DNA from: Candidatus Flemingiibacterium sp.
Lineage (GTDB): Bacteria > Bacillota > Clostridia > Oscillospirales > CAG-272
DNA: 35,830 nucleotides
Reading direction: 5' to 3'
NCBI GenBank assembly: GCA_045587285.1
Contig: JAZNBZ010000146.1
Location: 1-35,830, forward strand
Below the pieces are notes generated by a model that ran no database searches, had not been told where the DNA came from, and saw nothing but the letters and a program-made list of their open reading frames with translations. Position 1 is the first letter of the stretch. The number at the start of each line of letters is the position of its first letter. Made by a program: the position numbers and the translations under genes. Shown here piece by piece: positions 8,627 through 9,558 of this stretch.

Positions 8627-9468
8627 TTGTTTACTCCTTTCAAAATATGATCAACAAAATCCGTATCGAACTCACAATTATCAACACGTAATATTTTTAA
8701 CTGTTTTTTCGTACGATTTATAACTTGACTTTTGAATGTTTGCTCATTCATTATTGAACCATCTTGTGGATCATAAAATTTCAGTGCGCCCTTTTCTTTC
8801 ATTACCGTGATTATATGACCTTCTTGACTGTTTCCCCACGCCCATTCAACAGTATATCGCTTCCCTTCCCGAACTACGCTATCAATAAATTTTAGCTTAT
8901 TCGTTCCTTTAGGCGTAGTGATGTACTGTGGATGTTTGCCATATTGATCGATATATGCGAGATTAGTGTTATGAGATAGATCTCTGATATAACCATTTCG
9001 GTTATTTGGTAATGCTCTTACATCATATCCACGCAAACGAGCTTCAAATGCAACAACACAAGTCTGGCAGTTATCGTCGTATCCGTATAAACCGCGTTTG
9101 CCGTAATACGGATTTGGTTTCATACCGTCAGCTTGTTCGAAGGTCATTTCTTTGCCTTTGGATACGCCTGCGATTTTACCTGCTTCGCTTTGATATTTAT
9201 AATCAGGACTATGCTCCGGATCGTGTGCTTGACGCTTGCGTTCCTTTTTGCTATCCCTACGCTTTTTAGCGGCAAGTTTATCATACATGCGCTTATATTC
9301 CTTATCAGGATTTACGTTGTATCCCTTAAGTAAATCCCAAGCATCACGTGGCGTAGCTCCTTCGGGAACGTGAATTCCTCGCGCTTTGCATAAAGCAAAT
9401 GGAAGTCTGTATTTTGCGCTACCACCGCTTTCTTCATCTTTATCAAGCGGTTTATCGTATTTTGCCAT
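8623..9468 (-). CDS. papain-fold toxin (Tox-PL / glutamine deamidase-like) with a basic N-terminal leader
   Basis: NCQTCVVAFEARLRGYDV (catalytic Cys), GHIITV (His) and FYDPQ motifs in the canonical order. Confidence 0.8.
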   Translation of the reverse strand: MAKYDKPLDKDEESGGSAKYRLPFALCKARGIHVPEGATPRDAWDLLKGYNVNPDKEYKRMYDKLAAKKRRDSKKERKRQAHDPEHSPDYKYQSEAGKIAGVSKGKEMTFEQADGMKPNPYYGKRGLYGYDDNCQTCVVAFEARLRGYDVRALPNNRNGYIRDLSHNTNLAYIDQYGKHPQYITTPKGTNKLKFIDSVVREGKRYTVEWAWGNSQEGHIITVMKEKGALKFYDPQDGSIMNEQTFKSQVINRTKKQLKILRVDNCEFDTDFVDHILKGVNK

Positions 9469-9471
9469 TTA

Positions 9472-9500
9472 ATTATACTCCTTCTATTAAGATTTGTCAA
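9472..9500 (-). promoter_or_regulatory. consensus sigma-A promoter overlapping the toxin RBS
   Basis: TTGACA-aatcttaatagaaggag (17 bp)-TATAAT-taa-ATG. Confidence 0.8.
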
Positions 9501-9503
9501 CAG

Positions 9504-9539
9504 AAACGGCGCACTTTTTTCAAAGCACGCCGTTTTTTT
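9504..9539. terminator. hairpin / terminator after the major capsid gene
   Basis: aaacggcgcacttt...aaagcacgccgttt inverted repeat (G-U pairs on the minus strand). Confidence 0.65.
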
Positions 9540-9558
9540 ATTGAATTACGTAACCGAA

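Follow-up and report, generated by a model that had tools for sequence, protein, structure and literature searches.

Toxin-immunity modules obey one rule, namely that the toxin must never be made without its antidote. The locus analysed here raises the question of what a consensus promoter is doing when it is laid over the translation start signals of the toxin gene itself, and which of the two proteins of the cassette its transcript would serve. We addressed this question within a window corresponding to the whole 35.8-kb contig (35,830 nucleotides) of a metagenome-assembled genome that is 82% complete, and in a comparison set of 119 related loci drawn from viral, metagenome and genome collections which, with the window itself, amounted to 669 kb of sequence examined on both strands.

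The window is a prophage. It encodes an integrase, an HTH repressor, an ImmA-like peptidase, RecT, YqaJ, SSB and a C5-methylase, as well as a DUF1492 late regulator and the terminase large subunit, and the premise of the initial annotation that the element can persist as a lysogen is borne out by the integrase, the HTH repressor and the ImmA-like protein of this temperate gene set. The toxin-immunity cassette lies on the minus strand behind a probable major capsid gene of 358 aa (9559-10635, minus strand; stop codon at 9561-9559), which is weakly related to the phrog_267 major head protein (E 0.001) and is placed after scaffold-like and minor-capsid genes. The minor-capsid gene (PF06152, 11373-12515) is separate from the toxin gene. 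On the other side, the next late gene (7823-8380, minus strand) begins 3 nt after the stop codon of the immunity gene, with a strong Shine-Dalgarno sequence (SD) and no family match.

The first gene of the cassette (8623-9468, minus strand) encodes a protein of 281 aa in which a charged linker connects a modular N-terminal domain (~60 aa) with a papain-fold Gln_amidase domain. The family assigned to residues 133-237 is PF15644 (papain fold toxin 1, glutamine deamidase), with an E-value of 1.5e-15 and a score of 58.7 bits for a gathering cut-off of 24.1, and this is the sole Pfam match of the protein, PF04233 (MuF) being absent from it. A database search returned 140 homologues, and in an alignment of 28 homologues Cys134, His218 and Asp233 are invariant, and both the N-terminal part and the annotated start position show conservation. 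By family match and Cys-His-Asp triad the ORF is a PF15644 papain-fold protein of toxin type, in agreement with the initial designation of the gene as a toxin; glutamine deamidase activity and toxicity are predicted. In the AlphaFold2 model (pLDDT 88.2), three helices at the N-terminus are followed by a long linker helix and then by an alpha/beta domain, and a fold search found this last domain to be weakly similar to papain-like toxins and effectors (two matches at E <= 0.001), whereas the N-terminal domain was not matched. In its host family, matches at E <= 1e-20 occur in 4 of 401 GTDB genomes, including the window's own. Among cultured phages, 25 records matched, each with less than 60% identity and a query coverage below 80%; the proteins concerned are MuF-like minor head proteins or proteases, matched in their C-terminal parts, so that there is no cultured model with the stand-alone form of the toxin.

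The N-terminal ~60 residues (consensus R-L-P-F-x-L-C ... T-P-R-D-A-W) form a module that heads many different C-termini. Across loci L016-L120, as in residues 1-60 of the window's toxin, it introduces proteins of 85-1400 aa whose C-termini are mostly unannotated, and genes with this module can occur severalfold in one locus (L022, L041, L057, L078 and L117). The domain has no name in Pfam among 35 proteins that carry it: 7 of the 35 matched PF15644 only, one matched DUF3560 below the cut-off and 27 gave no match, and a protein atlas search with the N-terminal domain gave no usable match. As judged from their sequences, these proteins look like a polymorphic-toxin family distinct from MuF.

The second gene (8384-8626, minus strand) encodes the 80-aa cognate immunity candidate, a member of a family (WNGYEVY...ILVK) with no Pfam or PHROG match. 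Its start overlaps the toxin stop by ATGA, and it possesses, as had been read initially, an SD of its own (AAAGGAG, 8640-8634, minus strand), which lies 7 nt before its ATG. Homologues of the 80-aa protein were detected by tblastn beside Gln_amidase toxins in 33 further loci and in two toxin architectures: directly after N-domain Gln_amidase toxins on the same strand, and after MuF-fused toxins (L002-L014) on the opposite strand; where the C-terminal domain of a cassette is a different one, its small ORF differs too. When toxin residues 96-281 and the 80-aa protein were modelled together, each with its alignment (15 sequences for the 80-aa family, the window's included), the predicted complex reached 0.92, against 0.00 for the best control, a mark attained by 58 of 80 solved complexes and by 2 of 110 mismatched pairs. 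Three prediction runs had at least 93% of contacts in common, with a partner pLDDT of at least 89, and residues 40-48 of the partner were predicted to sit on Cys134 and His218 of the toxin. Binding of the 80-aa protein to the toxin is thus supported by modelling, although not proven, and the conserved neighbourhood together with the predicted complex makes the 80-aa ORF the likely cognate immunity protein, the role originally assigned to it. Analogous predictions are presented for MuF-fused glutamine-deamidase toxins in the consulted part of PMC11699363. In the MuF-fused Gln_amidase loci (L002:3577-3816, L013:3604-3864, both minus strand, and similar ones), the immunity homologue is convergent on the opposite strand with no visible SD and must consequently have its own expression signals; before the opposite-strand immunity genes of L002 and L013, a search for a leaderless-type promoter found no convincing -35.

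The promoter site stands at the start of the toxin gene. On the minus strand, the capsid stop is followed by an A-run, a hairpin, the -35 hexamer TTGACA (9500-9495), a 17-nt spacer, the -10 hexamer TATAAT (9477-9472), the three nucleotides taa and the toxin ATG (9468-9466). The toxin SD AGAAGGAG (9485-9478, minus strand) lies within the spacer, with 9 nt from its last G to the ATG. Re-reading of the minus strand found all of these elements at the positions given by the initial annotation. With 12 of 12 consensus positions and a 17-nt spacer, the site has the form expected for sigma-70/sigma-A promoters (TTGACA, 16-18 nt, TATAAT), and a consensus scan identified it as the sole 12/12 match in bases 1-20000, a region whose promoter-like sites, taken together, do not exceed chance expectation (33, compared with 28.0 +/- 5.4 in shuffled sequences). 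The other consensus promoters of the window belong to the switch region (28132 on the plus strand, 28518 on the minus strand and 28435 on the plus strand) and to a lipoprotein moron (5606, minus strand). These are genes expected to be expressed from a prophage, which fits activity of the toxin-start promoter in the lysogen without showing it.

Two of these other sites deserve description in their own right. The 5190-5606 interval (minus strand) is a second, classical moron between tail genes: a promoter with TTGACA, a 17-nt spacer, TATCAT and an upstream TG lies 36 nt before a lipoprotein-like ORF of ~109 aa, whose signal peptide ends in Cys and which is followed by a small hairpin and a T-run. 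At 28132-28260 (plus strand), in the lysis-lysogeny switch region, a 12/12 promoter with an extended -10 TG is followed by ~90 nt with hairpins and then by a hairpin with a T-run, with no credible ORF and no Rfam match, so that this interval is a candidate small RNA; its promoter faces a 12/12 promoter of the opposite strand at 28518-28490. In the window as a whole, no Rfam family reached its gathering score.

The spacing of the toxin-start site determines what its transcript could encode. In the E. coli sigma-70 statistics excerpted from PMC5730371, which may not hold for this host, transcription starts at positions 6, 7, 8 and 9 after the -10 in 8, 55, 29 and 7% of cases. In the window the A of the ATG is already at position 4, and positions 6-9 correspond to 9466-9463, so that the start-site window predicted from those statistics (9463-9466, minus strand) falls on the G of the ATG or beyond it. 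The geometric argument made at the outset, that transcription begun at the usual distance would bypass the toxin start, withstands this comparison, since the modal start lies 7 bp after the -10. With 3 nt separating the -10 from the ATG, and with the SD placed in the spacer, polymerase should start inside codons 1-2, at about 9466-9463, and the resulting RNA, having lost the SD and AUG of the toxin, should give no full-length toxin. It would consist of the toxin reading frame minus these signals and would retain the immunity SD ~840 nt downstream.

Full-length toxin would then come only from transcripts started upstream and reading through the hairpin that separates the capsid gene from the promoter. 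This hairpin (9535-9504, minus strand) has a 14-bp stem and a GAAA loop and folds at -19.5 kcal/mol alone and at -29.1 kcal/mol in a 111-nt context (z -4.1; 0 of 200 shuffles as stable). The tail after its G+C core, TTTCTGTT, contains 6 T in 8 positions, is interrupted, and leads into the -35. The hairpin is missing from the list produced by a terminator scan of bases 1-20000, and it is 100% conserved in the closest relative (L068); with its good stem but interrupted T-run, it is a candidate partial intrinsic terminator. As read-through transcripts would also encode the immunity protein, immunity should always exceed toxin, and its surplus would probably exist in the lysogen too. In this scheme, translation of the immunity gene from a long leader, its timing, and a partition of immunity and toxin between lysogenic and lytic growth are presumed. 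An untranslated leader of ~840 nt, or of ~1.3 kb in relatives with toxins of ~430 aa, would make for inefficient expression and counts against the scheme, and the known immunity promoters are situated closer to their immunity genes than is the case here.

Conservation of the geometry in related phages, which the initial annotation had named as a touchstone, is borne out, with 12 cases, the window included, that we refer to as compressed. Distinct sites with at least 11 of 12 consensus positions (68 in total) were sorted by the distance between the -10 and the next SD-preceded start, the first such start being used, so that a few distances are underestimated. This distance is -2 to +4 nt for 10 of the 68, 5 to 10 nt for none, 11 to 37 nt for 33 and farther for 17, while 8 sites have no ORF; the distances form two groups, and the 5-10 class between them is empty. 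The compressed class includes the window (gap of 3 nt), L046 (-2), L099 (0), L070, L075, L081 and L020:807 (1 each) and L073 (3), two further cases at 10/12 (L077, gap 1, and L090/L091, gap 0), and two with other N-termini, namely L017 (gap 4, a Gln_amidase toxin with an immunity homologue) and L054:624 (gap 4). Pairwise identity among the 12 does not exceed 60% from -40 to +30, their hexamers are spaced by exactly 17-18 nt around spacers of differing sequence, and all precede cassette proteins. Among the compressed N-domain cassettes, 8 of 10 have an ORF of 73-92 aa at the toxin stop.

These data bear on the suggestion that the match is functionless, an A+T-rich SD-ATG stretch that happens to read TATAAT, the TTGACA located 17 nt before it being fortuitous or a remnant. 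Promoter-like sites are, as stated above, unenriched in the window. Furthermore, in the closest relative L068, which has the same insertion site and 69% protein identity, the corresponding hexamers are TTGATG and TATAAA with a spacer 2 nt shorter, and L040, L042 and L048, relatives of L099, have no promoter hexamers. As the hexamers are absent from such relatives while SD and ATG are kept, the element is dispensable, and by these comparisons it is evolutionarily labile. A chance origin is nevertheless quite improbable, as 37 distinct 12/12 sites were seen in the 669 kb where ~0.24 were expected, and as 12 sequence-distinct cases with differing spacers all keep the 17-18 nt spacing and belong to a bimodal distribution of distances. 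Perfect sites abut an ATG-ORF in 10 of 37 cases, against 7 of 123 weak (10/12) sites, a difference whose Fisher p of 0.0008 overstates significance because the loci are related and not independent. We thus consider it very likely, from its sequence and recurrence, that the toxin-start site is a genuine housekeeping promoter of sigma-A type, and presumably an active one. Comparison of L040 and L042 with L099 also showed that the 17-nt spacer with its SD and the first codons are identical, the differences being confined to two -35 and three -10 positions.

RNA libraries gave a further view of this junction. Six RNA runs came into question (highest word share 0.23), and the assembled contigs of four were compared with the window. 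Contigs of a 95-99% relative match 9566-12506 and 8064-8237, but none matches 8309-9430; they cover the capsid, scaffold and minor-head genes and carry no information on transcript start, strand or level. One of them agrees with the window through the capsid gene, its hairpin and the -35 hexamer, and its match ends at 9492, in the spacer. In the minus-strand reading, the 27 unmatched letters of this contig complete a spacer of 17 nt that includes a G-rich, SD-like stretch, and continue with TATAAT directly followed by ATG. This single contig is weak evidence for the same layout in front of a different gene, and its divergence at 9492 suggests a cassette exchange whose junction fell inside the promoter.

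The survey also delimits the family in which the arrangement occurs. Of 74 non-redundant N-domain genes, ~50 show no promoter match of 10/12 or better in a range of 130 nt, a count that speaks against a general role of such promoters in the family; the others belong to the compressed class or to a second one. In this second, normal class, the -10 stands 17-36 nt before the ATG (L016/L019, L030/L074, L069, the L024 group, L067 and L029); it comprises at least six lineages, and the SD is wholly within the leader in 5 of 6, the predicted start cutting the SD in L016/L019 (17 nt). Since related lineages have normal leaders, toxin exclusion is not a family rule. In three lineages of this class (L069, the L024 group and L067; L069:2925-2985, L025:2845-2905 and L067:2915-2975), the promoter is located inside the loop of a hairpin followed by a T-run; transcripts arriving from upstream would form this hairpin, and those of the promoter would carry its 3' arm only.

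The normal-leader cassettes (L030/L074, L069, the L024 group, L067, L029 and L016) show that the family tolerates toxin expression from a promoter of this kind, and they lend some credit to the view that the window's site is an ordinary moron promoter for both toxin and immunity, acting through an early start that yields a leaderless mRNA at A9468 or through SD-less translation of the toxin. The two gaps of 4 nt, in L017 and L054, can be read in the same way, as a start at position 5 would there be the A of the ATG. A leaderless layout, however, needs a -10 some 6-7 nt before the ATG, where the survey is empty (12 cases at -2 to +4, none at 5-10), and the ATG has its A at position 4 in the window and at -1 to 2 in six other cases, which renders this view rather unlikely.

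A moron is a late-gene insert with its own promoter, its own terminator and a deviant composition. The cassette of the window has its own promoter, a G+C content of 0.41 compared with 0.48-0.50 in its flanks, and a position between conserved phage genes, and it is a moron-like insert behind the hairpin of the capsid gene. An own 3' terminator is the one feature missing from the window: none is found in the 3-nt gap between the immunity gene and the next gene. The expectation of the initial annotation that the promoter would give an immunity-only transcript fails at this point in the window, as with no terminator after the immunity gene its RNA would also cover the head-tail genes. Most relatives carry the cassette between a late-activator-like gene (phrog_36/248) and terS/terL, usually with a hairpin upstream, whereas in the window it lies behind the capsid gene and its immunity gene is followed by no terminator. 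A clear hairpin with a T-run follows the small ORF in 8 of the 11 relatives examined, and two gaps are too short to fold; in those relatives the cassette is a closed unit in which the small gene would be the sole translatable one.

The open end of the window's cassette gives some weight to the possibility that the promoter restarts late transcription behind the capsid terminator, with head-tail and tail mRNA as its main product and immunity as an incidental one, all the more so as transcription meets no terminator past the immunity gene, 3 nt beyond which the next gene begins with its strong SD, and terminator-like sites further downstream are at chance level (23, against 19.5 +/- 4.1). Such a role is unlikely, given that the hairpin and T-run close the cassette before terS in 8 of 11 related loci, which indicates that the promoter serves the cassette. 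In addition, a constitutive consensus promoter on structural genes would be wasteful in the lysogen, and the lower G+C of the cassette marks an insert carrying its own signals.

Another possible product is an N-terminally truncated toxin, made from an internal start together with the immunity protein as in a TA-like addiction module of the Rhs kind, for which the part of PMC7043789 considered here offers a precedent. Met108, which precedes the whole toxin domain, is invariant in the 28 homologues and is the natural candidate start. It was rejected: in 12 homologues with the motif, anti-SD pairing before Met108 is ordinary (percentile 0.06-0.72 of the gene background) and reveals no consistent SD, unlike the -6 to -12 kcal/mol obtained at true starts. 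Compressed cassettes with other C-terminal domains have no such Met, and we regard a truncated toxin as very improbable.

The best explanation, to which we attach a probability of about 50%, is that a genuine promoter would give an immunity-biased output from a moron-like cassette. Besides the long leader, the lineages with normal leaders, the degenerate promoter of L068, the hexamers absent from L040, L042 and L048, and the open 3' end of the window's cassette weigh against it. The stronger proposal, that this is a selected promoter-over-RBS design uncoupling immunity from toxin in an undescribed family of phage toxin cassettes, defined by the ~60-aa N-domain and not by MuF, is tentative, and we put its odds somewhat short of even. 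Under such a design, the consensus promoter would supply surplus immunity to every lysogen and newly infected cell, and its sequence rule would be that the -10 ends 0-4 nt before the ATG, or at most 2 nt into it, and that the spacer holds the SD. Overprinting a promoter on the translation signals of a toxin would be a more compact solution to the requirement for antidote, and one recognisable from sequence. If true, the expression logic, with immunity always made and toxin only with upstream or late transcription, would become predictable for many cassettes of uncultured gut phages, and the notion that lysogens are protected in advance against a toxin that sibling phage carry or release would gain support. 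From the survey there moreover emerge, in phages of gut Firmicutes, an N-terminal module and a family of immunity proteins, neither of them annotated so far.

Separate immunity promoters occur in E-type colicin operons. The closest systems with which the cassette can be compared are the MuF toxins, phage morons, Rhs toxins and the T6SS effectors of Vibrio cholerae. MuF polymorphic toxins of temperate phages have small adjacent immunity ORFs, and glutamine-deamidase-type domains are among the reported fusions (PMC5576092; PMC11699363, as far as the portions used extend). The present toxin resembles them as a toxin of the head module of a temperate phage, with a variable C-terminal domain and a small adjacent immunity ORF, and fusions of this same Gln_amidase domain to PF04233 exist in L002-L014; it differs in having no MuF domain, and in an unannotated ~60-aa N-domain shared with other C-termini. 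In the available text of these two papers, cassette promoters are not discussed, the word promoter occurring 0 times in PMC5576092 and three times in PMC11699363, two of which concern expression plasmids. More broadly, we found no description of a promoter overprinted on toxin translation signals in the main texts of the open-access literature.

With phage morons (PMC3594210), the cassette shares insertion between conserved late genes, a lower G+C and an own sigma-A-like promoter, and in relatives also an own terminator. It departs from them in the missing downstream terminator of the window and, if the immunity-biased reading is correct, in a first gene that could not be translated from its own promoter. 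The Rhs case offers another likeness, in that transcription begins inside a polymorphic-toxin gene and runs into the immunity gene; according to the passages of PMC7043789 consulted, Rhs internal promoters yield a truncated toxic product along with immunity in TA-like modules, whereas no credible ribosome-binding site is seen inside the toxin gene here.

That an immunity gene can be transcribed separately, from a promoter inside the toxin gene, is, on the strength of the sections consulted, a known principle (V. cholerae T6SS, PMC3857813; Rhs, PMC7043789). In V. cholerae, the promoters of the immunity genes tsiV1-3 are located inside the effector genes, that of vasX in the 3' part of the ORF with an active fragment at 2208-3258 (PMC3857813, within the extract used). 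The cassette described here differs in that its predicted promoter lies over the SD and start of the toxin gene, ~840 nt from the immunity gene and in a phage late operon, and it would share with the T6SS loci an immunity route independent of that of the toxin, a dual expression profile and protection while the toxin is off.
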